From positions 64,001 through 128,000 of the IMG/VR virus record IMGVR_UViG_3300013121_000027: DNA of 64,000 nt. The stretch is one strand, 5' to 3'. The translations under genes and the position numbers were made by a program. Below the pieces are notes generated by a model that was given only the letters and a program-made list of their open reading frames with translations, made no database searches and was not told the origin of the DNA. Positions within the stretch are counted from its first letter, which is position 1. Each line of letters starts with the position of its first letter. Below, piece by piece: positions 1 to 16,620 of the stretch. The stretch comes from a virus. Its lineage: Duplodnaviria > Caudoviricetes.

Positions 1-8
1 AAGAGGGA

Positions 9-1055
9 TTGGATTGGGTTTTCGATCCATCTAATTTTATTCCTTATTCTACTATTGCAACCGATGCTTTCGCCGCTAAAGAATATGTAGATCCTGCTCA
101 AAAGGGAGCAAAACTATATACTCTTTATGATGCTACTCATAAGCAATATATACCTTATTATCCTCATAGAATTCCATATGCCAAAGAGTTAAAGCCATTC
201 AATCAATCAATTACCGACATTAATCCTACTCCTTCTTTAACTTCTTTATTATTTACTTTAAAAAGAGATCCAGTAAAATTTGTTCCTCTTTTACAGCAAG
301 AAGAATTTGGTATAGATATTGCTTCCTTTGAATTTTCCCAAAAAGCTCTTCAAATAAAAAATATTCTTGAAAGTAAAATCTGTCCTCACTGTAATAAAAT
401 ATTCCCTCAAATGGAAAAATTTACTTCTGTTCTTGTCGGCATTGATACCGTTGAAAAAATAGTGACAGAAAGTGACATGTGGTGTACGCATTGTGTCGCT
501 ACTTCAACTGCTCAAATCGATATTCATGGAGATACTTTTCCTGCATCTACAGATATATTGCTTTGGAGCGAGCACTATAGTCTATACTTCCTACCCTTTG
601 ACATTACTGAATGTCCAGGTTGTGGAGAATGTCAGCCAAACAATATAGATACTTCTGACTTTTTTGTTTATGGATTGGATTTCGATAATCCCATTGGATG
701 TGTTAACTGTCTATATTCTGAAGACGATGAAGCTCTTTATGTTTGGGATCCATTCATTAAAAAGTATTTCATTAACGAATTAGCAGTTGAAGTTCAAACT
801 CTTCAGATGTTACCAGATCCTCAAACCTTAAAGATATCGGTTTGTCAAGCGCTACAACTTGTCCATCCTACAACCGCAGAACATATTTGTAATTGTGGCA
901 TGTATATAGATGATCCACTTTCTAAGTGCGTAAGTAAAAAAAAAGAAGATAATTCTTTGACATGTGTCACGTGCGTGAATAAAGAACTTATATCTACAGG
1001 TCCACAAATCACTGAAGTTGTTTTAGATACCAAAGGAAAAACCATAGATGAATGA
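9..1055 (+). CDS. Cys-rich hypothetical protein with multiple CxxC pairs (5' end may lie outside the window)
   Basis: CPHC, CTHC, CPGC, CVNC, CVTC motifs; stop overlaps start of JAB gene. Confidence 0.6.
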   Translation: MDWVFDPSNFIPYSTIATDAFAAKEYVDPAQKGAKLYTLYDATHKQYIPYYPHRIPYAKELKPFNQSITDINPTPSLTSLLFTLKRDPVKFVPLLQQEEFGIDIASFEFSQKALQIKNILESKICPHCNKIFPQMEKFTSVLVGIDTVEKIVTESDMWCTHCVATSTAQIDIHGDTFPASTDILLWSEHYSLYFLPFDITECPGCGECQPNNIDTSDFFVYGLDFDNPIGCVNCLYSEDDEALYVWDPFIKKYFINELAVEVQTLQMLPDPQTLKISVCQALQLVHPTTAEHICNCGMYIDDPLSKCVSKKKEDNSLTCVTCVNKELISTGPQITEVVLDTKGKTIDE

Positions 1056-2295
1056 GCAAGAGCTCCAAGAATTAGGCTATGTCAGGCACATAGGTCCTCT
1101 CCCCCTTTTCTGGGGTGCCGAGACTGACTCCATGAAAGATATTGAAGAAGCTGGATTCCAAGACTATTATCTTCTTGCTCAAGAAAAGATAGCTCTTCCT
1201 CCTCAGCAGGGTAAAGCTCAAGAATATGCGTATCGTCCTACCATATTTCTTATCACCAAAACTATCATGGGTCGGGCGGTGACACTTGCTGAACCTAAAG
1301 ATATTAATCTTTTTCAATCCACAAACGAAAGCGCTCAATACTTCATGCCCAAGATGCCTTGGGAAATGGTTCAAAAAATGGATGCGTTCTTTAGGTTAAC
1401 CTATAAGAAACATGGCTCTGAAGCTATTCTTGTTCTTACTTATGATATGGATTATGTAGGCACTGAGAATCCTTCTGCTGGATGGAATTGTATTGCTCCT
1501 AAGCAGAAGAATACCGCTGGTAACTGCGACTATGAACCCGATTCTATTCTTCAATATAAGAAAGATTCAGAACTCATCCTTGGCACTATTCACTCTCATC
1601 CAGAAATGAGTGCATACTTTTCCTCTACTGACCATAAGGATCAGGACGAATGGGACGGTATTCATATTACTCAAGCCTGGAAGGGCACCGGTCCTACCGA
1701 GTATTATATTGCTATGATATTAGGTGGACAACAATGGGTTCTTAAACCTGAACAGGTTTTTGATACTCCTCCTCTTCCTCAAGTTGACACAACTCAAGTT
1801 GAGACCTGGATGGAAAATGTAGAAAAAAAAGCCGTCCAGCCGGCACCGATGACTCAGTATGGCAAGACTTATGGTACCACGGGTACCTCTAATCCGCCAT
1901 TGAGCTTGGCTATGCCGTTGCCCACTCAAGGGTTTATGCCTGCTGATAAAGTACGTGCAATCAAGCTTCCAGCTAACGCTCCCGATCCAGAAACGACAGT
2001 TATCATTCCCGAATATCCCGCCTCTATTCTTACCGATACCGTTCTTCATAAGTGCCGCCTCTGCAACGCACCACTTCTTGCTCAGTGTGTTAATTCTCGT
2101 AGGTGTGTTGCTTGCACTGCCTTTATGTTGATTGAAGGTGAAAGCGTAAAGGATCTTGAAGATTATAGAAATAATGGCAAATGGTCCTATTCACTTTACA
2201 TTGATTTGGAAAAGTCTCCCAATCCTATTTCCATCTATTACTTGGATGAAACTTTCTCTGATGATCAAAGAATTGGTGCCTACCCAAAAGTTTAG
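1048..2295 (+). CDS. JAB/MPN+ metalloprotease (prokaryotic deubiquitinase-like, PRTRC protein A-like) with C-terminal Zn ribbon
   Basis: upstream Glu (GSEA) and GTIHSHPEMSAYFSSTD = HxH-x7-S-x2-D; CRLC...CVAC; adjacent to ThiF and Ubl. Confidence 0.9.
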   Translation: MNEQELQELGYVRHIGPLPLFWGAETDSMKDIEEAGFQDYYLLAQEKIALPPQQGKAQEYAYRPTIFLITKTIMGRAVTLAEPKDINLFQSTNESAQYFMPKMPWEMVQKMDAFFRLTYKKHGSEAILVLTYDMDYVGTENPSAGWNCIAPKQKNTAGNCDYEPDSILQYKKDSELILGTIHSHPEMSAYFSSTDHKDQDEWDGIHITQAWKGTGPTEYYIAMILGGQQWVLKPEQVFDTPPLPQVDTTQVETWMENVEKKAVQPAPMTQYGKTYGTTGTSNPPLSLAMPLPTQGFMPADKVRAIKLPANAPDPETTVIIPEYPASILTDTVLHKCRLCNAPLLAQCVNSRRCVACTAFMLIEGESVKDLEDYRNNGKWSYSLYIDLEKSPNPISIYYLDETFSDDQRIGAYPKV

Positions 2296-2951
2296 GGGAC
2301 ACGGTTGCCCCCTTCGATCATAAAGATCGCCCTAGCCCTGCGTATAGGTTAATATCGTGTCCCGAATGCTATTCTGATTTTGATGATTATACCTACACAA
2401 CTGGCAAGCCTGTCTTAGCTGATCTTTGGTTCTGTACCTATTGTGGTTGCGGAGTTCAAGATTACTTCATTCTAGGAACTGAAGTCTGTTGGTTTGTAGA
2501 CAGTATTGATCTTATAGATGAATTTGAATTTCTTTATGAACCAATTTCTGCGATGACCCAATTGGATCTACAGAATTCGTTTACTTGTTTATGTTGCGAT
2601 CTTCCTATCGAAGATTGTCAAACTTATGGTCAACCCAGATTCAATATTTCTCAAATAAGCATTGAGGACTATATGATTGATCATCATATTATGCGCAGAG
2701 ATATTTATAATGAAAACTTTTCGGATTGCTGCACATGCCAGTTCTATATGACAGATGCTTGTGTTCCTTTAAGAAATATTATTCGTTTTTACCATCAAGC
2801 CAAAGTCATTCCATCCTTTAATTTAGTCGGATGTTATGATTATGAGCAAAATGATGATGCTGATGAATATCTTAACGCATTAAGTGATCAAAAATTTCAA
2901 TCAGAAAAAGAAAAAGATACAATTGTCTTGCCTAAAAAATATACACTTTAA
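2283..2951 (+). CDS. Cys-rich ORF, probably a -1 frameshift extension of the JAB protein
   Basis: frame is open from slippery C CCA AAA (2283-2289) through the annotated ORF 2553-2951 with no start codon before 2553; encodes CPEC...CTYC. Confidence 0.7.
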   Translation, partial: PKSLGDTVAPFDHKDRPSPAYRLISCPECYSDFDDYTYTTGKPVLADLWFCTYCGCGVQDYFILGTEVCWFVDSIDLIDEFEFLYEPISAMTQLDLQNSFTCLCCDLPIEDCQTYGQPRFNISQISIEDYMIDHHIMRRDIYNENFSDCCTCQFYMTDACVPLRNIIRFYHQAKVIPSFNLVGCYDYEQNDDADEYLNALSDQKFQSEKEKDTIVLPKKYTL

Positions 2952-2959
2952 GGATACTA

Positions 2960-3754
2960 ATGGCTAATAACACTAAAAGGATGATCCTGATTGGCTGTGG
3001 AGGTACAGGAACATGGCTTGCCCATGGTCTTGCTAAATCTCTTCAGTTTCAAGCTCCAGGATCTGCTCTTCTTCTTATAGATGGCGATTCATTTGAACCT
3101 AAGAATGCAGAACGTCAACAGTTTTCACATACTGGTAATAAAGCTTACGTTTTAGCCGAAGATATTCAATATCAAAACCAAGCTATATTTGTTATCCCTC
3201 GTGCTGCCTGGATTGTATCTGCTGATGTTGAGGATCAAGTAGATGACGACGAAGCTGATGATGGTGCTGTTGTTGTTGCCCGTATTACTGCAGAATCTTT
3301 GCTTGAAGAGAACGATATTGTTTATGCCTGTGTAGATAACTATGCTGCCCGTAAGTTGATTTTTGATGCCGCAAAGAATCTCTCTAATATAGATGTCTTT
3401 ACTGGTGGCAATGATGAACATCTCTTTGGAACCGTCTATCATTACCGTCGTCGCGATGGACAAGATATAACTTTTCCTCCAGACTATTTCCATGATGAGT
3501 TTATTAATCCTGGAGATAAGAATCCTGGTGAACTCTCCTGCCAAGAAAGAGCAGAGCTTGATGGCGGAACTCAATTGCTCGCTGTAAATATGGCAGTTGC
3601 CTCTCATTTACTTGCCAAAACCGCTCATACGATTTTTGGTACTGAAAAAGAAAATAAGGCTGCCTTGGAAAAGGCAGAAATATACTTTGACCTTGAATTG
3701 GGTCTCTCTCAACCCTATGATCGCCGTCCAGCTTTGGTTGCTGTAACGGTTTAA
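2960..3754 (+). CDS. ThiF/E1-like ubiquitin-activating enzyme
   Basis: IGCGGTG, DGD..EPKNAERQ, CVDNYAAR, candidate catalytic Cys in ELSC. Confidence 0.92.
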   Translation: MANNTKRMILIGCGGTGTWLAHGLAKSLQFQAPGSALLLIDGDSFEPKNAERQQFSHTGNKAYVLAEDIQYQNQAIFVIPRAAWIVSADVEDQVDDDEADDGAVVVARITAESLLEENDIVYACVDNYAARKLIFDAAKNLSNIDVFTGGNDEHLFGTVYHYRRRDGQDITFPPDYFHDEFINPGDKNPGELSCQERAELDGGTQLLAVNMAVASHLLAKTAHTIFGTEKENKAALEKAEIYFDLELGLSQPYDRRPALVAVTV

Positions 3755-3788
3755 TATATAAACACATACAATAAAGGATATATATAAC

Positions 3789-4043
3789 ATGACTACTGGT
3801 GAATCAGCAGCCGCAGCAAGCAGCCCAAGCTCTTCTGGCAAGGCAACTATTAAGTCTGGCGTTCGCGTTCAGCAAATCGAAGCGGGTCAGACTGTCGGAC
3901 AAGCCCGCGCTGAGTGGGCTACTCTGTTCCGCATTCCAACCGATGCGAAAGCTTACAGTGGTACCACTGAGCTGAGCGAAGATACTCAAATCACTCCTGA
4001 TATGAACGTTGAATTCATTAAGAAGAGTGGAGAGAAGGGCTGA
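3789..4043 (+). CDS. ubiquitin-like beta-grasp protein
   Basis: 84 aa, TVGQAR.., C-terminus VEFIKKSGEKG ending in free Gly; directly after E1. Confidence 0.85.
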   Translation: MTTGESAAAASSPSSSGKATIKSGVRVQQIEAGQTVGQARAEWATLFRIPTDAKAYSGTTELSEDTQITPDMNVEFIKKSGEKG

Positions 4044-4063
4044 TTTAAGCCCTAAAGACCTTC

Positions 4064-4124
4064 GGATCCTTTCTCCCTGTTGTCGAGCGTTGTATCAATG
4101 GCTTGACTTCGGGGAGAGGGATCT
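4064..4124 (+). promoter_or_regulatory. long imperfect hairpin after Ubl gene covering the SD of the next gene
   Basis: GGATCCTTTCTCCC...GGGGAGAGGGATCT outer stem, GTCGAGC/GCTTGAC inner stem. Confidence 0.65.
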
Positions 4125-4130
4125 GATACA

Positions 4131-4661
4131 ATGCCTTCTATGGCATTGAATTACACTATCCAAACATTAACGGAAGCTCTTGAATCTATTCTTGGACCTG
4201 AGGCGGCGGCTTTAGTAGCAAGAATAAATGAACTTCCAGGTTCTCACAAGTCTCCTTTTATCGCTTTACCTACAGATATCTCTTCTATTGATGAGATAAC
4301 TCGGCTTATTGCGAAAACTTCAAATGAGTATGGACAAGCTTGTAGGTTAGCTGGTCTTGCCAGAGCTCAATATAAAATAGCCGAAGCTTCTTATAAGTAT
4401 AAGTTTAGAACTTCTATCGGAATGGGAAAGAACTCTTCCGAAAGAGAGTCTAAAGCTTATGCTGCTGCCCAAGCTGAGTACGATAAGATGGTTGTGCTTG
4501 AGGCTATTGTACAGCTTTGTGAATCTATTGAGTCCGCTACTCGTATAGCTTCTGAGTCTTCACGCAGAATGCTGTTAGCAGCTGATCAATCGCAAAAAGC
4601 AGATAGTAGATTTGAGCATTCAGCATCATCCCTATCTGATAAAGACTTCTCTGTCGTATGA
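4131..4661 (+). CDS. helical/coiled-coil hypothetical protein
   Basis: Ala/Glu-rich helical ORF in operon context. Confidence 0.6.
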   Translation: MPSMALNYTIQTLTEALESILGPEAAALVARINELPGSHKSPFIALPTDISSIDEITRLIAKTSNEYGQACRLAGLARAQYKIAEASYKYKFRTSIGMGKNSSERESKAYAAAQAEYDKMVVLEAIVQLCESIESATRIASESSRRMLLAADQSQKADSRFEHSASSLSDKDFSVV

Positions 4662-4933
4662 TGACACAAAAAATTGGTTTTTATTATTCTCTTAATGAAA
4701 ATTGTCCTCATATCTTTTCTACAGTCTTTGTAGAAGACACCTTTACTTTTCCCTATTCTTTAATTAGGGATTGTTTTTCTTGCAATAAAACTCATTCGTT
4801 TAAATATTCATCTTCCTACTTAGTGAATACTCCACGTCAAAGAGCTTTAATGCAAACTTATTCGAAAAAAATAGGCGTTATTGAAGAGAACGTCATAGTC
4901 TAATTATAAAATACAATACCGATAAGGGATAAA

Positions 4934-6547
4934 ATGTCGTCTTTAGTTGACTCTTTGTCAAATCGTACTCCTATTGTCTGGGTTAATACATTGGAACCCG
5001 AAAGGGCTATTGCAGCTATCCCTTCTTTGAAGTCTGATGCAAGACCTCTCTATGTTTATGATGAATTCTCAGGTCTAATGGTTTGGGATCAAGACAAGGA
5101 CACTTGGAAAGTTGTCTTGGTTGAAATTAAGGATCCCGATACAGGTGAAGTAGTCCAAAAGCCAGTCTTTGGTTCTCAACAAGCCTTTGGTTATATCCTT
5201 AACCAGGATCCAAGTATTTATATAGTTCGTAATGCTCATAAAGATATTGATAACCACTTAACTTTATTCTCTGTTTTGTATAATCGTTATCGTTCAACGT
5301 TCTTTTCTGATGACTTGGATAAGCTCCCTACTCAAGTTATTTGCTTTGCGGCAAATGAGCCAGCGCCACCCGAAATCTCTTCAATGACTACAACTGCTGC
5401 ATGGGGATATCCGACTCCCCTTGAGCTTCGCACTATTATAACTAATATTCGTCAGAACTATAAAGACGACGTTGCTTCTGATGAAGATCTTGATGAGCTT
5501 GTCAAGTCTTCAGTCGGTCTTACTGAGCACGATGCTATTGAAGTCTATCTTTCTTCTATTCGTTCTCATGGCACCATTGACAAAAAGACTCTTCGTTCTT
5601 TGCGTCTGGAGCGTCTCAAGGCTATGTCCAATCTTGAAGTGGATGAGCCAAAGGTTCAGCTTTCTGATATTGGTGGTCTTGACAATGCTAAGAAGCTTAT
5701 TCAGCGTGCGGCATGGATTTGGCAGAATCCTGAAGAGGCTGCTAAATACAAGCTTGTTCCTCTTCGTCGCATTCTTCTTCTTGGTCTTTCTGGCTGTGGT
5801 AAATCCTACCTTTGCGAGGGTGCAGCCAGCGCTCTTGGTCTTCAGCTCGCCAAAGGTGGCGTCTCCAAGGCTATGAATAAGTTCATTGGTCAATCAGAGG
5901 CAAATATTACTGCCATGTTTGATCAGATCAATGCAATGTCTCCAATTACTCTTTGGATTGATGAAATTGGTCGTGATCTTTCTGGTGGTGGCTCTTCTAA
6001 CTATACCGATGGTGGCACTACTTCTCGTGTTCATGGATTGTTCTTGACTAAGATGCAAGAGCTCAATAAGGATGTATTTGTTTTTGCGGCTGCCAATAAC
6101 ATTGAATCTTTGGCTCCTGAGATGCTTCGTGCCGACCGCTTTGACAAACTCTTCTTCGTTGGCTTCCCGTCCTATGAAGAACGTCGTGATATCTTTGCCC
6201 TTCATCTCCCCAGAGATGCACAGTTTGATCTTGATGAGTTGGCAAGTCATACTCCGTGTTTTACTGGTGCAGAAATAAAAGCTCTTATTGAGCGTACTAT
6301 TTTTGATATTTCTCCACAATATAACCGTACTATTACCACAGAGGATTTAGTTAAAACTATTCCTTATCAGAAAAACCGTATTTGGATTCGTCATCGTAAT
6401 CTTGCTGTCAATATGTACTCCAGTGCCTTCAACGAATATGAATGGGCTTCTACCTCTCAGTATGGTGAAGCTCAGTTTATTATGAAGGGCGTTGAACCAA
6501 AACAAGGCATCACTGTTAATGCGGGGATGAGTCTTAATCTTAAGTAA
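4934..6547 (+). CDS. AAA+ ATPase (Ycf46-like)
   Basis: DIGGLD, Walker A GLSGCGKS, pore loop KFIGQSE, Walker B LWIDE, SRH PEMLRADRFD. Confidence 0.9.
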   Translation: MSSLVDSLSNRTPIVWVNTLEPERAIAAIPSLKSDARPLYVYDEFSGLMVWDQDKDTWKVVLVEIKDPDTGEVVQKPVFGSQQAFGYILNQDPSIYIVRNAHKDIDNHLTLFSVLYNRYRSTFFSDDLDKLPTQVICFAANEPAPPEISSMTTTAAWGYPTPLELRTIITNIRQNYKDDVASDEDLDELVKSSVGLTEHDAIEVYLSSIRSHGTIDKKTLRSLRLERLKAMSNLEVDEPKVQLSDIGGLDNAKKLIQRAAWIWQNPEEAAKYKLVPLRRILLLGLSGCGKSYLCEGAASALGLQLAKGGVSKAMNKFIGQSEANITAMFDQINAMSPITLWIDEIGRDLSGGGSSNYTDGGTTSRVHGLFLTKMQELNKDVFVFAAANNIESLAPEMLRADRFDKLFFVGFPSYEERRDIFALHLPRDAQFDLDELASHTPCFTGAEIKALIERTIFDISPQYNRTITTEDLVKTIPYQKNRIWIRHRNLAVNMYSSAFNEYEWASTSQYGEAQFIMKGVEPKQGITVNAGMSLNLK

Positions 6548-6563
6548 TTTGTAAGGAAAATTT

Positions 6564-7130
6564 ATGGACAACCATACCGAAATTGATGATCAAAAACCCC
6601 AAGCCATCGAATTAGTTAAGAAGTGGCATCGTACAGGATTTATATCTGTTTCTTATTGGGCGTATGCGGATAAAGTTATTATAGAAATTGGTGCTACCGA
6701 TCCTGATAATGGTAATGCTTTGAAAGGTGCTACCAAATGCTTTCTTCCAGCCCCACAATTTCTTTCCTATCTTCATGCAGAAGTTCATGGAACAATAGAA
6801 AGAATTTATTCTGATTTTACCCCAACAGGTAAAGGTGTTTCGTTCTTTGGTGGAACTATTTCTCCAGTTGTAATTTCTCGCATCTTTAATTCTAAGGTTT
6901 ATTTAGATTATAAGAATAACAATGCACCTGATTTCTTCTTTCGCACCTTTACCTGTGCCCATTATGAAGGTACCACTCGCGATAAAGGTGTTGTAATTCC
7001 TAATTACAAAGCTGAAATTTCTCGTAATACAATGAAACTTTCTCTCATTGACATTGCTGAAATATATCATTTAGTTAATACTCAAATGATTGTTGAGACA
7101 ATGCTTGATGCAATGGTGGAACATAAATGA
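6564..7130 (+). CDS. hypothetical protein
   Basis: 188 aa ORF with SD, tightly packed. Confidence 0.6.
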   Translation: MDNHTEIDDQKPQAIELVKKWHRTGFISVSYWAYADKVIIEIGATDPDNGNALKGATKCFLPAPQFLSYLHAEVHGTIERIYSDFTPTGKGVSFFGGTISPVVISRIFNSKVYLDYKNNNAPDFFFRTFTCAHYEGTTRDKGVVIPNYKAEISRNTMKLSLIDIAEIYHLVNTQMIVETMLDAMVEHK

Positions 7131-7501
7131 CAGATATAAATGATGCGGAAGATCTTCATAAGTTATTATTGAAATCATTAGATGTTCTTAGCAATGCGTA
7201 TGATCAAAAGTTTCTTCGTCTTGAAGAAGCTCAATCTCAACTTGAACAACAAGTAGCAGCGCTTACCGCTGGTTATACCGATATTGCGGCTATTTTAGAA
7301 ACTCTTACTTCAATTACTATTAATAGAAGTGAAGAAGATAAAGAAGAATTTTTTAAAACTTTAGCTCTTTCAAGAAAGAGAATTATCGAGACGCTACAAT
7401 ATGGAATCTCTCTCGCTGAAGAACAACTTGACAAATTTACCGCTCATGCACCAGGTCCTGATGCAAAATCTCAGCCTGATAAAGGTGTCAGCAACGAATG
7501 A
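7127..7501 (+). CDS. coiled-coil hypothetical protein
   Basis: ATGA overlap, heptad pattern. Confidence 0.6.
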   Translation: MTDINDAEDLHKLLLKSLDVLSNAYDQKFLRLEEAQSQLEQQVAALTAGYTDIAAILETLTSITINRSEEDKEEFFKTLALSRKRIIETLQYGISLAEEQLDKFTAHAPGPDAKSQPDKGVSNE

Positions 7502-7700
7502 TTGTTTGATTGTAACTGAATCCCAAGCCCAAATGGATTGGTTGAATTCACCACATCTACTTTCATTATTGTATCCTATTTGCCAGTCTTTAGTTGGAAA
7601 AATAGAGAACTTTTATATTGTTTGTCATTCAATATATGATATGGCTTTAAAAGAAAAAATAGAAGTCCTCTCTTTTAAATCTCTTTAGGAAATATCACAC

Positions 7701-8576
7701 ATGAATTATGCACTCTTTGAAGATTTTGATTCTTATGATTCAGAATGTTTAAATCCAAATCCATTTGATCCTAATGTACATTTGTTTTATAAGCCTGAGC
7801 CCTCTCTTATAAACTTTTTTCTTTCACATTCAGCTACTTTAAATACTGTTCTTAATTTCTTTAGCCTTTCATTGGAAGAAGCCTTTTCTCAGCCTAAACA
7901 AATTGATGAATTTGTACAAAATTTTAAAGTTAATAAGCAGGACTCTAGAATAGTTCCCATGTCATTCTCTGCATTTAAGAAAATACTTTTTTCTATTAAA
8001 AAAGAACATGCTGGTGTTTCTATACCCCAGCATATTTTTAATGCAATGCAGTATTTAATTGCTATTTCTGATTCTGATAATTTTATAAGTGCCTTATCTA
8101 AAACTCAAACGGTTCAAGTTTTAAAAATAGAAAAAAGTTTTCGCTCTTCATTTAAGGATTTTTTTTCTACTTGGGAAGAAGATAATTTACTTGGTTTAGA
8201 TTTGATTTTTATGTTTGCTGTTTTTATTGACCACAGATATATCCCAATATATGAATCTATACCTGGAACTAATAAATTCTCACCCAAATGCTTGTTTACT
8301 CCAGCGGTACAAGCACAAAATCTACTTCGTCAAGTATTTAAATCACAACCTCTTGAATCTTCTCTGCTTAAGAATGAATTCTATAAGAGGTTTTATTTTT
8401 CTTTTGATTCTTTTCATGATTGGCTTGTCAGTCTTGATCAAAGATATTTTAATGAATCCTATTTTAATAGATTATGTGTTTCAGAAAAAATTATAACAGA
8501 TTTATCCCTAAAAAGAATGCAAGCTTTAAATGAAACAAAAGTAAAAGAATTCATTAATCCCTATACATGGCAGTGA
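7701..8576 (+). CDS. hypothetical protein
   Basis: 291 aa ORF. Confidence 0.6.
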   Translation: MNYALFEDFDSYDSECLNPNPFDPNVHLFYKPEPSLINFFLSHSATLNTVLNFFSLSLEEAFSQPKQIDEFVQNFKVNKQDSRIVPMSFSAFKKILFSIKKEHAGVSIPQHIFNAMQYLIAISDSDNFISALSKTQTVQVLKIEKSFRSSFKDFFSTWEEDNLLGLDLIFMFAVFIDHRYIPIYESIPGTNKFSPKCLFTPAVQAQNLLRQVFKSQPLESSLLKNEFYKRFYFSFDSFHDWLVSLDQRYFNESYFNRLCVSEKIITDLSLKRMQALNETKVKEFINPYTWQ

Positions 8577-8577
8577 T

Positions 8578-9414
8578 ATGAACTACGATATTGATCCAAA
8601 AGAAGAATACATGGATGAGGAAAATGACATGGATAACAAACCGATAGCTAATGAAAATCCTCAGGTATATATTGATGCTACTGTCCTAAAAACAATGCTA
8701 TTTAAGGAAAAGAAAATGTCAGATATAGATTACATCGCAATGATCATTAAAACCGTTGTACGGGATGATATGATTACTGATGGCTATGCATCTTATGATG
8801 TCACGCAAAATATTTTTACTTGTACCGTCCCACCTTGGGTAAAAATTGTCAATGTAGATAAGAATTCCGTTGGTCAACATCATTTAGCTGGCATCAGTCA
8901 GTTTCATGATATCCATCAATATCCTTCTATCTTTTCTATTCAGATAGATGATAGTCAAAAGCCCTGTTGTATTTGGTATTCTCCTACTGCTAAAGAGATT
9001 AATAAAATGGGAAGTGAGCAGGTTGCCCATTATCCATATGACAAACCACTCATTAACCCTGGATGTTTTAATCCTGATTTAACTGGTAGTAAAAATGTTT
9101 TTGACGTCTGTGGATATGTGAATCCTATGATGTCTGGATTCTCCCAATGTAAGCATCATACTATGTCTTCTTGGGAAGATGTGACTGTTGCTTATGAAGG
9201 TGATAATAAGAAGTTTGCTATTCAGAGAAAGCTTCTTGGAGCTCGTGTTCCCCATTATGCCGTCTATGATTATGATAACAATGTAATCATATCCGAAGGA
9301 ACATCTATTCCTGAAATCAAAGAATCTTTTGAATCTGTAATACAAGATAAAGGATATAGTATTGTATCTGTATCTGGAAATAAGAATTCATACTTTAAAG
9401 CTATTTTTGCCTAA
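8578..9414 (+). CDS. hypothetical protein
   Basis: 278 aa ORF. Confidence 0.6.
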   Translation: MNYDIDPKEEYMDEENDMDNKPIANENPQVYIDATVLKTMLFKEKKMSDIDYIAMIIKTVVRDDMITDGYASYDVTQNIFTCTVPPWVKIVNVDKNSVGQHHLAGISQFHDIHQYPSIFSIQIDDSQKPCCIWYSPTAKEINKMGSEQVAHYPYDKPLINPGCFNPDLTGSKNVFDVCGYVNPMMSGFSQCKHHTMSSWEDVTVAYEGDNKKFAIQRKLLGARVPHYAVYDYDNNVIISEGTSIPEIKESFESVIQDKGYSIVSVSGNKNSYFKAIFA

Positions 9415-9431
9415 TTTAGTTAGGAAACTTT

Positions 9432-10199
9432 ATGACGTTTAATGATAGATATATTTTATTAGATGATGTAGCTAATACCGCTTACGTTTATTTACCTCTA
9501 ATTGGAGGTGCAACACTTCCTTTATCTACATATTTTAATACTATTCGTCAAGGTTTTCCTAACTTAGGTTTTTTACCTCCAGTTACAAAATTAATTACAT
9601 CTATAGATGACAATAATTGCTTTAAGGTTATAGTTGAAGCAGCCCCTAAGATTAGAACCCTGATGCTACAAGATGCTTATACTAATGAGACTGAAATAGT
9701 AGAGACTCCTTTTCCTTGGCACTCTTATATTTTCACTTTCAAAAGGCATTCTAAGACTCCAATATCTTTAATGGATGTTACATTACTTTTTCAACAACGT
9801 CAAATACAATCTGATTTAGATTTAGTTAATGGATTCTTTTCTTTACCTTGGCTTCCAAATGTCTCTACTGCTCATAATTTGATACTACCTTTAACTATTT
9901 CTAAATATTTGACGACAGATATGAATGCCTTTTATCGAGTTTTTCTTGATTCATTTTGGAATAACTATATTGTTACTAAACCTTCACCAAGTTTAGACCT
10001 TCACGCTAAAGAACAACTTGATTCTTTTGAAAAGATTATAAATTTCTTTGAAAATCTTCAATCTAAAACTCTTGATTGGGCTTGTGATTCTACTAATCAT
10101 ATTAAATTAAATGATTACAACGATTCAGATTTACTTTATCTTTTAAGTCCTTCTTCATTTAATTTGTCTTTTAAATTTGAGAATCTATTTAAGGTTTAA
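9432..10199 (+). CDS. prokaryotic E2-family (Prok-E2_D-like) protein lacking the catalytic Cys (pseudo-E2)
   Basis: LPP...E.AP..R, PFPWHSYIF, PWLPNV, FLDSFWN; paralog of next gene but no Cys after LPNV. Confidence 0.6.
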   Translation: MTFNDRYILLDDVANTAYVYLPLIGGATLPLSTYFNTIRQGFPNLGFLPPVTKLITSIDDNNCFKVIVEAAPKIRTLMLQDAYTNETEIVETPFPWHSYIFTFKRHSKTPISLMDVTLLFQQRQIQSDLDLVNGFFSLPWLPNVSTAHNLILPLTISKYLTTDMNAFYRVFLDSFWNNYIVTKPSPSLDLHAKEQLDSFEKIINFFENLQSKTLDWACDSTNHIKLNDYNDSDLLYLLSPSSFNLSFKFENLFKV

Positions 10200-10201
10200 A
10201 T

Positions 10202-10999
10202 ATGCTACTTCAAATAATCGAAAAAACAAATACCATCTCTACTTCTCTTTATTCTAAACTTGGTACAAAAGCCCAAGCTATTATCGACTGTGATGTAGAT
10301 ACCCTTAATGCCCGCATTGCTTCCTTTGGTACATATCTACCAAATGGATGTTTACCTCCCTCTGTTAGATACATGGATTTAGCAACTGGAATCGTTTTGT
10401 TTGAGCGTCCTCCGACTTATATAAACATTTCTTTTACTAATCAGTATCAAGCAAAATTAAAAGCTGAAGGACGCGCAAAGCGCTCATTTAGAATACCAAT
10501 TCCTTGGCAGCGTTATGTCGTTTATCTTGGTAGCAATGGCTTGCCTTCTACCTTGTTTGTATTTTTTGCCGGGAATCAAATACAAAGTTTAGATAACGAT
10601 CCTATGTCTTCTGCTCCGCTTCCCAATCTTTATACTAACGGTACTGTTTGCCTTCCAGTCTATGATCATCGCGACGTTGTACACTTTGATATTGGTGACG
10701 GAATATACAATATGTATGAAACTGTTTGGGGATCTGGATTCAATCTTGATGTAGTACAATGTCTTAATAATTGGCTTTCCAATAATGCTCCAACTCATCC
10801 ATTGACAAAATTTCCAAACAATATCGATAATATCGTTTCATTCTATAATCATTGGTCTAATTTTAATTTAGAACAGATAATGAAAATGAATTGGCATACT
10901 CCACTTTATAATAGTTTTACTCAACTTATCTCATCTATACCTCCAACAGAGCAAAATCATGATAGCTTTGTTGATTTATATCTTGCAATAAAAGGGTAG
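10202..10999 (+). CDS. prokaryotic E2-family ubiquitin-conjugating protein (Prok-E2_D / PRTRC B-like)
   Basis: IPIPWQRYV, APLPNLYTNGTVCLP, VWGSGFNLD. Confidence 0.8.
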   Translation: MLLQIIEKTNTISTSLYSKLGTKAQAIIDCDVDTLNARIASFGTYLPNGCLPPSVRYMDLATGIVLFERPPTYINISFTNQYQAKLKAEGRAKRSFRIPIPWQRYVVYLGSNGLPSTLFVFFAGNQIQSLDNDPMSSAPLPNLYTNGTVCLPVYDHRDVVHFDIGDGIYNMYETVWGSGFNLDVVQCLNNWLSNNAPTHPLTKFPNNIDNIVSFYNHWSNFNLEQIMKMNWHTPLYNSFTQLISSIPPTEQNHDSFVDLYLAIKG

Positions 11000-11005
11000 G
11001 TGCTT

Positions 11006-11079
11006 GGTTCTCTAGCTCAGATCGGTAGAGCGTTCGTCTGAAAAGCGAAAGGTGGTTGGTTCAATTCCAACGGGAACCA
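11006..11079 (+). tRNA. tRNA-Phe(GAA)
   Basis: cloverleaf GGTTCTC/GGGAACC, loop CTGAAAA, T-loop TTCAATT. Confidence 0.92.
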
Positions 11080-11123
11080 CAATATATAATGCTAAGGCAT
11101 TCTGAAAGGTAATAAAATCCTAC

Positions 11124-11489
11124 ATGGAAAATAAGATATGGACAGCTTTTAAATTAGACCCCCCAACTTTTACCCGTACCCAGATGGCTAAGCTACTTAA
11201 TTGTACTCCACTTACGATATCAAATCGCGAAAAGAAAAATCAGTACCCAGATCCTAAACGATCTCCTACATCTAATCATAGATTCTATACTATTCAAGAT
11301 GCTTTTCTTTTGCAATATATAACTTATCGTCAAATTAATATTTCTTCTGTAGCTGCTTTACTTTGGGATATGGGCTATACTGATACCGGTCTTGTTTTAC
11401 CATGCTTAGAAAAAGAAATAGAAGTTTTTAAAGCATCTCCAGTTTTGGCAGTTAATCAGCCTCAACCTAAAGTTGAGGATTATATATGA
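11124..11489 (+). CDS. MerR-like helix-turn-helix DNA-binding protein
   Basis: TRTQMAKLLNCTPLTISNREK...P.PKR...HRFYT. Confidence 0.75.
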   Translation: MENKIWTAFKLDPPTFTRTQMAKLLNCTPLTISNREKKNQYPDPKRSPTSNHRFYTIQDAFLLQYITYRQINISSVAALLWDMGYTDTGLVLPCLEKEIEVFKASPVLAVNQPQPKVEDYI

Positions 11490-11761
11490 GTGATCAATCA
11501 AAAATAAATCCTGAAGAACCATTTGATCTTCAGTATCAAAATGCTATATTCAATTTTCTTTTTCTATTAGTTGATTATTATAAGATGACTATGACTTCAC
11601 AAGAGGCTATAAATAAAGCATGTGATTGGTTAACCTCGTTAGCTAATCACATAAAAAGTAAAAGTTTGGAAATAACAACAGAAATAAATGACAAAACCAA
11701 ACTATTCACTAAGCTCAATAATGGACAAGATATTTAGATTGGCGAAAGGCACCGAGCTTAC

Positions 11762-12190
11762 ATGTTAAATAAGAAAAATTTAGTTATTCTTGAGGGTGGA
11801 CTTACTAAAGATCCTCAAGAGTTTGAAAATGCTAATGTTGTTCACCTATCATTAGCAGTAGATAATGCAGGACAAGAAAAAGGTGTTCAGTACGCCTCTG
11901 GCTATTTCGATGTGAAGGTTTGGCTAAATGAGTCAAAGTTTACACCGGCTGCCGTAAGCGAATATGTTCGCAATGCCCTTAAAGAAAAGACCCTAAAGAA
12001 GGGCGCACGAGTTTCTATTGTTGGAACTCTTCGTCAAGAGCGTTGGGAAAAGGATGGACAGCGTTCGTCTAAGGTAGTTGTAATTGCAGAAGCTATAGAA
12101 GTCTACACCGCCTCCAAGAATGCTGGTCAGGCTGCTACTGCTACTGCTGCAATAACCGCACAAGAAGAAACTTTCGTCCCTAATTTCTAA
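11762..12190 (+). CDS. ssb: single-stranded DNA-binding protein
   Basis: NLVILEGGLTKDP, LAVD, FDVKVW, KKGARVSIVGTLRQERWEKDGQRSSKV. Confidence 0.9.
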   Translation: MLNKKNLVILEGGLTKDPQEFENANVVHLSLAVDNAGQEKGVQYASGYFDVKVWLNESKFTPAAVSEYVRNALKEKTLKKGARVSIVGTLRQERWEKDGQRSSKVVVIAEAIEVYTASKNAGQAATATAAITAQEETFVPNF

Positions 12191-12199
12191 GGAATTGTT

Positions 12200-12922
12200 G
12201 TGGCTGAAGAAGCAGAACTCGTCACTCCGGTTGTTGTTTCTTCAGCCGCACAATCAAAACTTCTCCCCTTTTCCTTTTTAGAAACTCAGCTATACGATAA
12301 GATGTCAAAACTATTGACGTCTTATATGCCAGCAGCCGATATTAGATATATGATTTCTGAAATTAAGTCAGATCTTTTTGCCGGGTTTACTAAGATTGAT
12401 TCTAAGCAACTTCATACCGTAATACATCATTGTAAAAAATGCCCAAATGTTTCTGGATCTCCCATCCTTCCATCTTGGAATTGCACCGATCCAGATCTCA
12501 TGATTATAGTTGAGAGTCCTACCATAATAGAACGTTATGGTTCCTTTCTCTTTAACGCTTTAAAACAGACTGGATTTTCTTCAAATAGATGTGTCTTAAC
12601 TTATGTTACAAGATGTAAGGTTAAAGAATTAACTCAACAGAACGTAGATTCTTGTTTGCCCTATCTTCATACTGAACTTCCAATTCTCAATCCTAAAGTT
12701 ATTATGCCTTTAGGTCTATCTGTTTTTCAGTTTTTAACTGGAGATATCAATTCTAAGCTAAATGAGATAAAGGGAATTGTTCGTTCTTGGGGAACTTATT
12801 CTATTATTCCCGAAGTTTCTTTGGGTACTTTATATCACGCGAATGAAAAAGGACAAGGGGCATATGATGCATTTGTTGCCTCATTAGAAAAAACATATAA
12901 TTATCTTTACTTAGGAGGATGA
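12200..12922 (+). CDS. uracil-DNA glycosylase family-4-like protein (divergent)
   Basis: CKKC, DLMIIVESP, TYVTRC, CLPYL..EL..LNPKVIMPLG. Confidence 0.7.
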   Translation: MAEEAELVTPVVVSSAAQSKLLPFSFLETQLYDKMSKLLTSYMPAADIRYMISEIKSDLFAGFTKIDSKQLHTVIHHCKKCPNVSGSPILPSWNCTDPDLMIIVESPTIIERYGSFLFNALKQTGFSSNRCVLTYVTRCKVKELTQQNVDSCLPYLHTELPILNPKVIMPLGLSVFQFLTGDINSKLNEIKGIVRSWGTYSIIPEVSLGTLYHANEKGQGAYDAFVASLEKTYNYLYLGG

Positions 12923-14556
12923 CTTACCACTATGACCGATGGCGGAGATATTCAAACCATTGGCTATAGTCCTATTCAGTTTAGTGAATTAGTCGAGAAA
13001 GAATTAAAAACTCCCGATTCACTTACTAAAAATGAATTAAGCTATTTAAAAACACATAAACCCTACTGGCGTTCTGAACTTATTAACTTAAAAAAGAGAA
13101 CAGAATTTCAATTAACTTCTTCTAAAGCGCGTCAATTCTCTCTTTATAAAGAAAAAATAAATAACAAATTGACTGAAGCTCAATATGTTGATAAACTTCA
13201 AGTAGAAAAATCTTGGCGTTGTAACGCAACAAGATTTGTACAACAACTTGAATTTAAAATTTCTGAGGTAAAGATGATGACTGATGCGTGATTTAATTTC
13301 TAAAATAAAAAACTCTCAACCTACAAAAACAGGCGAGGAAGCTGCATTAGCTTTAGCCAATATTGTCATGAATCCTACTTGGGTTTCAGCTTCGTCGCTT
13401 GTTTTTGGTATAGAAGAGATGATTGATTACGCAAGTAATTTTATCAGCTATGATGCCCGTATTGTTGTTCACGATGAAGAATTATTTACAATTCAGCCTA
13501 TTCATATTTTGCATATAGATGAGTCCATTCTTACTGACGGATGGAAAAATATTTGGGTTTTACTTTATAGCAATGGTGCAGTTTCTTATGGAGAAAAAGA
13601 AGATCCCAATGACAATTTGTTAGCAGTCTTTGTCGATGAATCTCTTATTGATCCTGCTAACTTAGTTGAGATTGTTCTTAAGAAAGATTCTCAATGAAGA
13701 AAGTTTATGTTCCCCATCTCTCATCTATAGTTACTTTACCACTTGAGAAGTGGGGACCTCTTTCTTTAAATGATATAGTGTTTGCTTACGACGGCAACGA
13801 TACGATAGCTTGGTTATCTATTATTGAAATAGATACCGATAGCAATATTGCTACTGCTAAAGTCTTAGATTATTTTGATAATTTAGAATAACTTGTAAAG
13901 GAAAATCAATTGGACGATTCATCAGAAATGATCCCTCTAGAAGATGTAGTCGTTATGTCTGATTATTTTTTGGATGTTTTGTCAATAGCAGGTATTCTTT
14001 ACCAGAACCATGATGAACCTGGTTCTATTGTTCCTGAAGGTTTAGAACCAAAACAATATCTTACTCTTGGAGAAAAACTCTATGAGATAATGCAACAAAG
14101 ATTTGGTGAAAATGTTTCTGAAAGTGAAAAACTTAAGTTTTTTACCTGGTTGATGGTACAATATTCTTGCCTCTATGTTTTAAAAACTTTTCCAGATAAG
14201 ATTCCTTTACCAGAAATTATAGAACAAGAAATAAAGTACTCGTTTATAAAAGAAAATCCTGAGCTATATTAGGACCTAACAGATGAGTAGACGCAGAGTG
14301 CAAAAATCTAAAGGTAAGAAAAACTATAAAAATACCTCCATCATTGAAGGTAACAAGACTTTTTATATTGACGAAGATGGATCTGTAATTCCCCTTCGTC
14401 CAAGTAAATCTGTAAGGTATGATTCCCCTAAGGGTGCTATAAATAATCGCCATAACAATAATCAACAAGTCAATAGCCAGCCTGACAAAAGTAAGAAGAG
14501 GCATAGGTACGCTTATGCAAATTTTCATCAAATGGATTTAGTAGCCGAAGAAATTT

Positions 14557-15435: not shown

Positions 15436-16620
15436 ATGGTATTATTGATGGTTGATCTTCCTAAGGTTATTCCTACGGCTGATTTACTTGATCCAGAAGA
15501 CAGAGCAATAAATATTGCTATCAATGCTCGTGGATTTAATAGAAGGCGTTCTATTTCCGCCAAAAAAGAATTAATTGCTCCAGATTTTCAAGAGGTTTTT
15601 AATGCTAAATTTGGATCCAATATTCTTTTAGATTCTATGGATGTTGCTTATGATCCTAAAACAAAAACTAACAAGTTTTATGGTAGTATTATTTTTGATC
15701 TCTCTGATGCTATCCTGGTTTATTTTCGTTCCGCTTCGGATTTTAATTATTTCCACTTTTGGTCAGACAAAAATAAAATTGCAGAAGACTATTGTGCTTG
15801 GGTACAGCAGAATCTTATCTTAGATAAGGTTCAAAATGTATTTGATGATAAGAATAATACTCGTGAGATAACCTTTTGGGCAGCAATGGGTGGTGATTAT
15901 GAAGATTTTAATAGGTCTGTTGTTCTTTATAATTGGGATGATCATGTTCAATACAATTATCCTCCCGCAGTTGCTAAACAACTGAATTTCTTGCGCGATC
16001 TTAATCCACCTATTCTTGGCGGTAAGATCTTAATCTTCCATGGAAGTCCTGGTACTGGTAAAACCTCCTTTCTAAGGTGCCTCACGCGCCACTGGACCGA
16101 CTGGTGCCACACTTCTTATATCACTGATCCTGAGAACTTCCTGGGACAACCTGGAGCCATGCTTCGGGTAATCACCTGGAACTATCAATCTTTTATTGCC
16201 GCAGATGTTTTACCCGAAAACGCATATCATCTTCTTATCCTTGAAGATGCTGATGAATTGATAACTACAGATGCAAAAGAAAGAACCGGGCAAGCCCTTT
16301 CTCGTCTCCTCAATATAGGAGATGGTTTGTTGGGTCATTCAACAAATCTTCTTATTTGTATTACTACTAATGTTGAGGTAGAAAAATTGCATCCTGCCAT
16401 TACTCGTAACGGTAGATGTATTGCGAATATTCACTTTGATATGTTCACCTATGAAGAATCTGTTGATTGGTTAAAAGCCAACAATATTGAGGCTTCTCCA
16501 CACGAGATGGGCTTGAAGCACGCTGAGAAATATAGTCTTGCGGATCTTTATGCGCTTTCGAGCAAAGCAAAACAAATCACTCACAAACAAGAAGACTTTG
16601 CAGTGGGTATCTATCTATAG
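15436..16620 (+). CDS. AAA ATPase (DUF5925/BCS1-like)
   Basis: GKILIFHGSPGTGKT, LILEDADE, LSRLLNIGDGLLG, HPAITRNGR. Confidence 0.85.
   Translation: MVLLMVDLPKVIPTADLLDPEDRAINIAINARGFNRRRSISAKKELIAPDFQEVFNAKFGSNILLDSMDVAYDPKTKTNKFYGSIIFDLSDAILVYFRSASDFNYFHFWSDKNKIAEDYCAWVQQNLILDKVQNVFDDKNNTREITFWAAMGGDYEDFNRSVVLYNWDDHVQYNYPPAVAKQLNFLRDLNPPILGGKILIFHGSPGTGKTSFLRCLTRHWTDWCHTSYITDPENFLGQPGAMLRVITWNYQSFIAADVLPENAYHLLILEDADELITTDAKERTGQALSRLLNIGDGLLGHSTNLLICITTNVEVEKLHPAITRNGRCIANIHFDMFTYEESVDWLKANNIEASPHEMGLKHAEKYSLADLYALSSKAKQITHKQEDFAVGIYL

Follow-up and report, generated by a model that had tools for sequence, protein, structure and literature searches.

Does a bacteriophage carry its own machinery for tagging proteins with a ubiquitin-like protein (Ubl)? 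The question is raised by bases 64001–128000 of the 231,459-bp IMG/VR virus record IMGVR_UViG_3300013121_000027, a stretch of 64,000 nucleotides referred to here as the window, in which an earlier note had described a Ubl-conjugation machinery made up of a JAB peptidase, an E1, a Ubl (the tag), an AAA+ ATPase and tandem E2 genes. All of these genes were found where they had been placed, on the + strand, and a phage-encoded set of Ubl, E1, E2-family and JAB proteins is present with its catalytic motifs intact. The record, which comes from an uncultured phage, has direct terminal repeats and is rated 100% complete, and other genes of the window match phage families of DNA polymerase, primase, helicase and endolysin; ownership of the cassette by a phage therefore holds. 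We consider it likely that this phage encodes a ubiquitin-like protein-conjugation system of its own, because the locus combines a ubiquitin-fold tag with an invariant Gly, a complete E1 site, three E2 paralogs and a JAMM peptidase. Bases 1–13,000 are gene-dense, with every gene on the + strand, and the block continues into genes for a single-stranded-DNA-binding protein (SSB) and a uracil-DNA glycosylase (UDG). Its central features are the following.

1–1055, + strand: E2-plus-zinc-finger protein (P0063), C-terminal 350 residues; 568 amino acids (aa) in full, with the start outside the window
1048–2295, + strand: JAB/JAMM metallopeptidase (Pfam Prok-JAB), short zero-frame product of 415 aa
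2283–2289, + strand: slippery heptamer C CCA AAA, in register, one codon before the JAB stop; candidate −1 frameshift site
2265–2951, + strand: zinc-finger extension in the −1 frame of JAB, open from 2265; the open reading frame (ORF) 2553–2951 is its distal part
2960–3754, + strand: E1, a minimal single-domain adenylating enzyme of ThiF/MoeB type, 264 aa, with candidate catalytic Cys194 in E-L-S-C
3789–4043, + strand: Ubl tag, 84 aa, with a beta-grasp core and the C-terminus ...SGEKG followed by the stop
9432–10199, + strand: E2-family paralog in which Ile stands at the position of the active-site Cys, LPNVSTAHNLILP
10202–10999, + strand: E2-family paralog whose Cys150 lies in an HPN-like context, LPNLYTNGTVCLP

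Relatives of the locus in IMG/VR were recovered by a search with an E1 alignment, single-protein and short-alignment queries having given none. The search yielded 112 E1 relatives; 79 loci were retained and about 80 examined, and an iterated profile hidden Markov model (HMM) for each window protein was run against the ORFs of all loci collected. This is the synteny survey that had been suggested for the locus, and it showed that about 80 viral contigs, from two jumbo-phage clades, share the order E2-JAB-E1-Ubl. E1 proteins of the closer clade (L013–L063; many contigs of 150–270 kb) are about 50% identical to that of the window, those of the distant clade (L064–L091; contigs of up to 224 kb) about 30%, and the tag of the distant clade is N-terminally extended to 155–175 aa. 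A variant with the Ubl gene first occurs in L011, L081 and Bacillus phage vB_BceM_WH1. We regard the core four-gene cassette of E2, JAB, E1 and Ubl as established; the tandem E2 genes, which like the AAA+ gene and the neighbouring ORFs for proteins of 188, 124 and 278 aa are restricted to the closer, collinear clade, are probable further members, because their products are paralogs of the core E2.

GenBank phages gave no DNA match to the cassette region and, by tblastn, no match for the E2 at 10202 or the tag at 3789–4043, and PHROGs held no family for the cassette proteins, the AAA+ ATPase excepted. An IMG/VR search with the DNA polymerase, meant to gauge the cassette-bearing share of the clade, returned no matches, and a promoter and terminator scan of the region gave signals not above those of shuffled controls. 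On one IMG/VR contig (3300042868_009074; 267,766 bp; L013 and L048), the whole cassette occurs twice, as diverged copies separated by about 215 kb, possibly because two related phages were joined into a chimeric or concatenated assembly.

The earlier note had made its claim depend on a beta-grasp fold of the product of 3789–4043. An AlphaFold2 model computed with the family alignment as input has the order beta-beta-alpha-beta-beta-beta at a mean predicted local distance difference test (pLDDT) score of 82.6, and with Foldseek its closest counterparts in the PDB were Caldiarchaeum ubiquitin, ubiquitin, SUMO and NEDD8 (probability 1.00, E values down to 3.4e-4). The refutation foreseen in the note, that the product might lack this fold, therefore did not come about. 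The N-terminal tail of about 17 aa is disordered in the model and Ser/Ala-rich, as it is across the family. No Pfam, NCBIfam or PHROG model recognises the window tag; 57 relatives came out of 1.8 billion representative proteins searched exhaustively with HMMER. G81, K83 and G84 are invariant in the 37 that were aligned, so that the family C-terminus reads G-x-K-G, and most relatives end exactly at the equivalent of Gly84, as does the window tag, whose free C-terminal Gly (...GEKG, then stop) had been correctly noted. Some relatives carry 1–13 residues past the Gly, with tails such as IF, NS, EN, C and SL, among them the closest one (72% identical), which ends GEKG-IF. Others consist of 2–4 head-to-tail repeats, or up to five if those of Bacillus phages are included, each closing with G-x-K-G. 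Among the tag homologs of the collected loci, 65 of 85 are Gly-terminal and about 20 have tails or repeats. With their exposed or cleavable C-terminal Gly and their poly-tag precursors, these tag genes look like ubiquitin genes.

The E1 matches Pfam ThiF (PF00899) with 50.6 bits (cut-off 28.1; E value 1.8e-13), its best NCBIfam match is PRTRC_ThiF (1.1e-8, under the cut-off), and its profile retrieved from the PDB members of the E1 superfamily only (MccB, TcdA, Uba4, SAE2, UBA5, UBA3 and ThiF). Conservation was counted over 84 primary E1s from related loci: GxGGxG, D43, K/R48, N49, R52, Q53, K61, D126, N127, R131 and S/T193-C194 are each kept in 82–84 of them, the Cys of ELSC, Cys194, in 83. 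This residue lies 68 positions past the Asp-Asn motif, which presumably fits the crossover-loop Cys of ThiF and UBA5. ThiF, MoeB and UBA5 are homodimers; by analogy, the window E1 is probably homodimeric, too, with its Cys in a crossover loop. A second E1-like gene of about 290 aa directly follows the tag gene in the distant clade (e.g., L064:11273-12178); its product keeps the Gly-rich loop, is devoid of the Arg-Gln and Asp-Asn motifs and of the Cys loop, and is in these respects similar to the inactive adenylation subunit found in heterodimeric E1s of eukaryotes.

Recognition of the E2 genes had been incomplete. The tandem genes 9432 and 10202 do belong to an E2 family as paralogs, but a third member, directly upstream of JAB, had been overlooked: the Cys-rich ORF at 3–1055, formerly taken for a separate zinc protein, is the C-terminal part of the 568-aa E2-plus-zinc-finger protein, whose gene starts 651 bp upstream of the window (G000:C1:63349). 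Its N-terminal E2-family domain, residues 43–174, lies mostly outside the window; it is matched by the E2-family HMM (E value 3.4e-9) and in an own-genome search (5.7e-22), and contains a candidate catalytic Cys151 in the motif GWIC, which is present in 35 of 35 non-redundant orthologs. The remainder of the protein carries the CxxC pairs C345/C348, C379/C382, C422/C425 and C451/C454, kept in 83–94% of these orthologs, and further Cys residues. A RING or IBR identity of this Cys-rich half is unsupported, since profile searches of the PDB with the protein family gave weak zinc-ribbon or ZZ-type matches only; a weak IBR_1 match (0.043) was seen in one relative.

In 85 loci, the E2 profile picked out two to three ORFs each, and the ORF directly upstream of JAB was always among them. 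Because that position holds an E2 in about 80 loci and the tandem pair occurs only in the closer clade, the E2 domain of the upstream protein is the one most likely serving the cassette. Within the HMM-defined family, 26 of 97 non-redundant members matched Pfam Prok-E2_D (PF14460) at E ≤ 0.01, the best with 8.6e-9, and an 884-aa member scored 23.4 bits; no other Pfam family was matched, and NCBIfam PRTRC_B was matched by two of the 97, at 1.4e-4. Neither the 9432 protein nor the upstream E2 matches Prok-E2_D directly. On these profile matches, the E2 family is related to Prok-E2_D at the family level. Cys150, Asn142 and Pro101 (numbering of the 10202 protein) are invariant or near-invariant in the 97 members. 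A Cys following an (H)PN motif is present in the 10202 protein (LPNLYTNGTVC, i.e. LPN-x7-C), weaker in the upstream E2 (SN...GWIC151) and absent from the 9432 protein; the four database relatives of similar length that were found for 10202 all keep Cys150 in LPN-x7-C-L.

As had been noted, the two tandem genes differ in the active-site residue, Ile in 9432 and Cys150 in 10202. They are distant paralogs (BLASTP E value 0.003), the 9432 protein being matched by the family HMM at 1.3e-8 and in an own-genome profile search at 3.8e-25. Both tandem E2s keep the Cys in 51 of 51 relatives; the Cys-to-Ile change is therefore private to the window phage. The 9432 protein is only 29% identical to its closest ortholog, compared with 45–74% for neighbouring genes, and is thus evolving faster than the rest of the block. 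It is either a partner resembling ubiquitin E2 variants (UEV) or a decaying copy. Profile searches of the PDB with the E2 alignments gave no matches. Foldseek with a poor AlphaFold2 model of the 10202 protein returned nothing at E ≤ 0.001, and 10 of the 46 matches listed were Rad6/UBC E2s, at E values of 0.3–0.8. Given the quality of the model, it is the family-level profile matches and the motifs that point to a UBC fold of these E2s.

JAB matches Pfam Prok-JAB (PF14464) with 30.4 bits (cut-off 25; 3.8e-7), and the residues of its E...HxH...S..D motif (E125, H182-x-H184, S192, D195) are kept in at least 99% of 81 homologs; its best PDB sequence matches are weak and all of them are AMSH-type JAMM deubiquitinases. 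The gene ends ...TAC CCA AAA GTT TAG and thus contains the slippery heptamer. The −1 frame is open from 2265, and its 96 codons preceding the ATG of the ORF 2553–2951 (2265–2552) include no start codon, yet encode a CPEC...CTYC pair. The same split between JAB and zinc finger occurs in six subclade relatives (L012, L054, L055, L056, L059 and L060); in six of six, the −1 frame holds the zinc-finger ORF, and a heptamer G GGA AAA lies in register 0–1 codon ahead of the stop of JAB. Other relatives encode the homologous zinc domain in frame, as the C-terminus of a long JAB ORF (55 such ORFs; e.g., residues 448–553). The −1 frame and slippery site in all split relatives, together with in-frame fusion elsewhere, are strong comparative evidence for a conserved programmed −1 frameshift, which would yield a short JAB and a long form with zinc finger of about 640 aa. 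RNA structure 3' of the slippery site was no more stable than that of shuffled sequences (z 0.56), so that a stimulatory structure is unsupported. The Cys-rich ORF 3' of JAB is hence not a free-standing zinc protein, as had been assumed, but a −1-frame domain of JAB, and the zinc-rich proteins once proposed as adaptors in their own right turn out to be domains of an E2 and of JAB. A role of JAB as a deconjugase in the window phage is plausible; in about one-fifth of the relatives, the residues or repeats past the Gly imply that the tags would need processing as well.

How does this set compare with known systems? It had been assigned to a PRTRC/Bub type. PRTRC, found on plasmids and integrative elements, is indeed the nearest curated family and shares a separate JAB, a minimal E1 and E2-family proteins. 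With the NCBIfam models TIGR03735–03738 (TIGR03735, PRTRC_A/JAB; TIGR03736, ThiF; TIGR03737, PRTRC_B/E2), PRTRC was the best NCBIfam match for the window JAB and E1 and for the two E2-family members mentioned above. However, the scores remained far under the cut-offs, with 20.1 bits versus 101.8 for JAB and 34.7 versus 144.75 for E1. The window tag and window E2s had no PRTRC match, the tag also lacked a match to Pfam Prok_Ub, and no ParB family was found among the 20 ORFs scanned in 1–13291, ORFs further upstream lying outside that scan. The window system furthermore differs from PRTRC in residing in a lytic-type jumbo phage and not on a plasmid, and in having three E2 paralogs, zinc-finger fusions on E2 and JAB, and an AAA+ neighbour. 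Among the literature matches listed, there was no functional study of a PRTRC cassette (ParB-related, ThiF-related).

The bacterial anti-phage ubiquitination system Bil (BilABCD; Chambers et al., PMC10557695), which is operon type 6d of Iyer, Burroughs and Aravind 2006 (PMC1779556), consists of the same four separate parts, namely, a small Ubl ending in Gly, an E2 with a catalytic Cys, a JAB and an E1, and by analogy thioester chemistry would be expected in the window system as well. In Bil, the E1 contains an inactive adenylation domain in tandem with an active one, together with a mobile Cys domain (PMC10557695), whereas the E1 of the window has one domain of 264 aa and carries its Cys in a loop, a distinction based on the description of Bil and not on a Bil profile. 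Bil is host-encoded, occurs sporadically and tags phage proteins; the window system is phage-encoded and has a fixed genomic position. Bub (operon type 6e/DUF6527; Ye et al.) has a Cys-less E1 and E2, forms oxyesters and uses the serine protease DUF6527 as deconjugase (PMC11601596). Tandem-repeat poly-Ubl precursors, as in relatives of the window tag and in Bub/6e operons, and an inactive E2-like paralog are common to both, but the window system shows conservation of Cys194 in E1 and of the Cys in E2, with a JAMM enzyme as its peptidase. DUF6527 was not matched in Pfam scans of the ORFs in 1–13291, and the Bub label was rejected in view of the conserved Cys residues and the JAB. Type II CBASS is set apart by Cap2, a fused E2-E1 encoded with a CD-NTase and an effector, E1 and E2 of the window being separate genes. 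PADLOC E1-E2 models cover only E1 residues 4–98, the nucleotide-binding loop; no CD-NTase was found, and PADLOC did not assign the cassette to any defence system.

A related cluster is present in Bacillus phage vB_BceM_WH1, a cultured jumbo phage of B. cereus, which encodes a poly-Ubl (gp211), an E2 (gp214), a JAB (gp215) and an E1 (gp216) in the order Ubl...E2-JAB-E1. The WH1 E1 is 27% identical to that of the window and has the same catalytic residues, and the E2, with JAB adjacent, belongs to the same family as the window E2s (HMM E value 1e-24). Gp211 (L002:6781-7680) consists of five Prok_Ub repeats (Pfam, 3.4e-27), each ending AGTKG, and a 15-aa tail; the G-T-K-G of the repeats is akin to the G-E-K-G of the window tag. 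The protein is annotated as 'virion structural protein', the other genes of the cluster having hypothetical or ThiF labels. The same poly-tag was found in Bacillus phages Edson and vB_BauM_KLEB27-3. In contrast to the window system, WH1 has a single E2 without zinc fingers and no adjoining AAA+ gene. A zinc-finger-fused E2, a frameshift-extended JAB and extra E2 paralogs are the distinguishing features of the window cassette. On another contig, metagenomic and 9 kb long, a four-repeat poly-tag, E2, JAB and E1 are located beside a reverse transcriptase gene (Pfam RVT_1; L011:2690-8366). The 2006 survey of prokaryotic Ubl operons includes Ubl-JAB pairs of phage tail assembly and no phage E1-E2 set (PMC1779556), and no description of a complete phage-owned E1-E2-Ubl-JAB set was found in the searchable literature, including reviews on jumbo phages.

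Several observations weigh against a phage-owned conjugation system. The E2, E1 and tag families are known from sequence, predicted fold and comparison alone. The tag ends in a single Gly (K-G) and not in Gly-Gly; the upstream E2 is devoid of the His and Pro of the H..LPN motif that 90–97% of its orthologs keep; and the 10202 protein scores 13.2–13.8 bits against Prok-E2_D, whose cut-off is 25, and was modelled poorly from five sequences (pLDDT 46.9), its secondary-structure order being compatible with UBC. The AAA+ family also occurs in phages without E1. Synteny, moreover, comes mostly from collinear relatives and is therefore weak evidence that the AAA+ ATPase, the tandem E2s and the uncharacterised ORFs share one pathway.

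If the phage does conjugate its own tag, the pathway might run as follows. The E1, probably as a homodimer, would adenylate Gly84 of the tag and then take the tag onto Cys194, from which it would pass to Cys151 of the E2-plus-zinc-finger protein. Through its CxxC modules, this 568-aa protein would direct the tag to lysines of the targets and so act as an E2/E3 hybrid. The 10202 protein, with Cys150, might be an alternative or chain-building carrier, and the Cys-less 9432 protein a UEV-like partner, if it is not a decaying copy. JAB, made in a short form and, via the −1 frameshift, in a long form with zinc finger, would remove or edit conjugates and, in relatives with tailed or tandem tags, mature the precursor as well; that the adjacent AAA+ ATPase may unfold tagged proteins is a guess. 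Since the one-directional block runs into the SSB and UDG genes, the cassette is probably expressed with the replication genes and would act inside the infected cell on host or phage proteins.

Between the tag and the tandem E2 pair lie the following genes.

4131–4903, + strand: two small ORFs of 176 aa and 81 aa, confined to the subclade of the window phage, with homologs in 8 and 4 loci, respectively
4934–6547, + strand: AAA+ ATPase of the classic clade, 537 aa, whose N-terminal domain of about 220 aa is specific to its family
6564–7501, + strand: two ORFs of 188 aa (52 loci) and 124 aa (53 loci), invariably following the AAA+ gene within the clade and in the same order
8578–9414, + strand: 278-aa ORF directly upstream of the tandem E2 pair, at the same position in 48 loci

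The ATPase matches Pfam AAA (PF00004) with 77.5 bits (cut-off 21.2; 1.7e-21), the CDC48 and PAN subfamilies of NCBIfam, and phrog_8638 at 7e-66, and its Walker A and B motifs, Arg fingers and F-I-G pore loop are invariant in 30 sequences. It is conceivable that the Ubl marks proteins for this ATPase, with the disordered tail of the tag serving as pore entry point, in a remodelling or destruction of host proteins like that by the ubiquitin-proteasome or Pup-Mpa systems. Such tagging and unfolding amounts to the conjugation system proposed above plus one extra claim. It draws on the occurrence of the AAA+ gene downstream of Ubl in 52 loci (in most of them as the very next gene, and in the subclade of the window phage with one or two small intervening ORFs), on the affiliation of the ATPase to the classic CDC48/PAN/FtsH clade with intact ATPase motifs and an invariant pore loop, and on the predicted tail of about 17 residues, Ser/Ala-rich throughout the family. 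However, all of these 52 loci stem from one collinear clade, the distant clade has no AAA+ gene within 10 kb, and in the window phage two unrelated ORFs separate Ubl and AAA+. Full-length homologs of the ATPase occur in mycobacteriophages, in Aeromonas phage HJ05 and in the streptococcal satellite Javan368; the HJ05 and Javan368 genomes, which encode the whole protein including most of its N-terminal domain, are entirely without an E1. Nor was a peptidase partner identified. With AAA+ beside the cassette in one clade only, tagging for unfolding is unproven; we think it unlikely, and treat the ATPase as a neighbour whose membership in the pathway, being based on synteny, is only a guess. More doubtful again is a self-contained, eukaryote-like pathway in which a tag with a disordered entry tail, several E2s, one of them joined to a zinc-finger module for targeting, and an eraser with a frameshift-dosed targeting domain would feed tagged host proteins to the ATPase; if true, it would be a viral tag-and-unfold system with an evolutionary origin separate from those of the proteasome and Pup-Mpa.

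Beside the AAA+ homologs of HJ05 and Javan368, no homologs of the 188-aa and 124-aa ORFs were found; neither ORF has a Pfam match. The 176-aa and 81-aa ORFs gave no family match in Pfam, NCBIfam or PHROGs, and the 278-aa ORF none in Pfam or NCBIfam. The 81-aa ORF (4658–4903), inserted between the tag and AAA+ genes, shows the pattern C..H...CxxC..H. A second ATPase gene (15436–16620; 394 aa) is located about 9 kb downstream of the first; its product matches phrog_33861 at 2.7e-38 and, more weakly, other ATPase PHROGs, and an AAA-domain gene occupies the same position in L003.

Host Ubl systems such as Bil and type II CBASS act against phages (PMC11601596; PMC10557695), and JAB peptidases are the cognate erasers in Bil and CBASS, so that the cassette, situated in the early/replication region of the genome, might instead serve counter-defence: JAB would strip host Ubl marks (virion tagging by Bil, priming by CBASS Cap2), or the tag and its enzymes would compete with or modify defence proteins. 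We hold this to be very unlikely. For stripping, an eraser alone would be enough, yet a full writer set of E1, three E2s and the phage's own tag is conserved; the cassette keeps a fixed position across large clades, unlike the typically patchy anti-defence genes; and no sequence similarity to Bil, Cap2 or Cap3 was seen except in the generic nucleotide-binding loop of E1.

Highly improbable, finally, is a non-conjugating E1-Ubl pair of the ThiS/MoaD type, in which thiocarboxylation of the Gly would supply a cofactor, tRNA or DNA modification, some other role being left to the 'E2' proteins: it would suit the minimal ThiF/MoeB-type E1, the weak ThiS or TGS matches of a few tag homologs and the single C-terminal Gly, which is compatible with thiocarboxylation, but the scanned neighbours include no sulfurtransferase, rhodanese, cysteine desulfurase or ThiG/MoaE-type partner and no thiamine, molybdopterin or modification-enzyme genes, a conserved-Cys E2-family protein and JAB stand beside E1 in about 80 loci, tandem poly-tag precursors fit a conjugated tag and not a sulfur carrier, and the closest structures of the tag are ubiquitins, not ThiS or MoaD.

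A conjugation system owned by the phage, which we consider the likely reading, would add enzyme architectures that are new, namely, an E2 fused to CxxC modules and a JAB that acquires a zinc finger by −1 frameshift. The related clusters in the cultured Bacillus jumbo phages vB_BceM_WH1, Edson and vB_BauM_KLEB27-3 make genetics possible. Trypsin acting on a tag that ends in Lys-Gly would leave a mono-Gly remnant of +57.02 Da, which is the mass added by iodoacetamide alkylation; standard di-Gly proteomics would therefore miss the conjugates. CBASS Cap2/Cap3, Bil and Bub have been characterised only as host-encoded systems, mostly in anti-phage defence. The fixed position of the cassette in two jumbo-phage clades suggests a role in the infection cycle and not a stray defence island, which would mean that ubiquitin-style tagging is used by both sides of the phage-host conflict.

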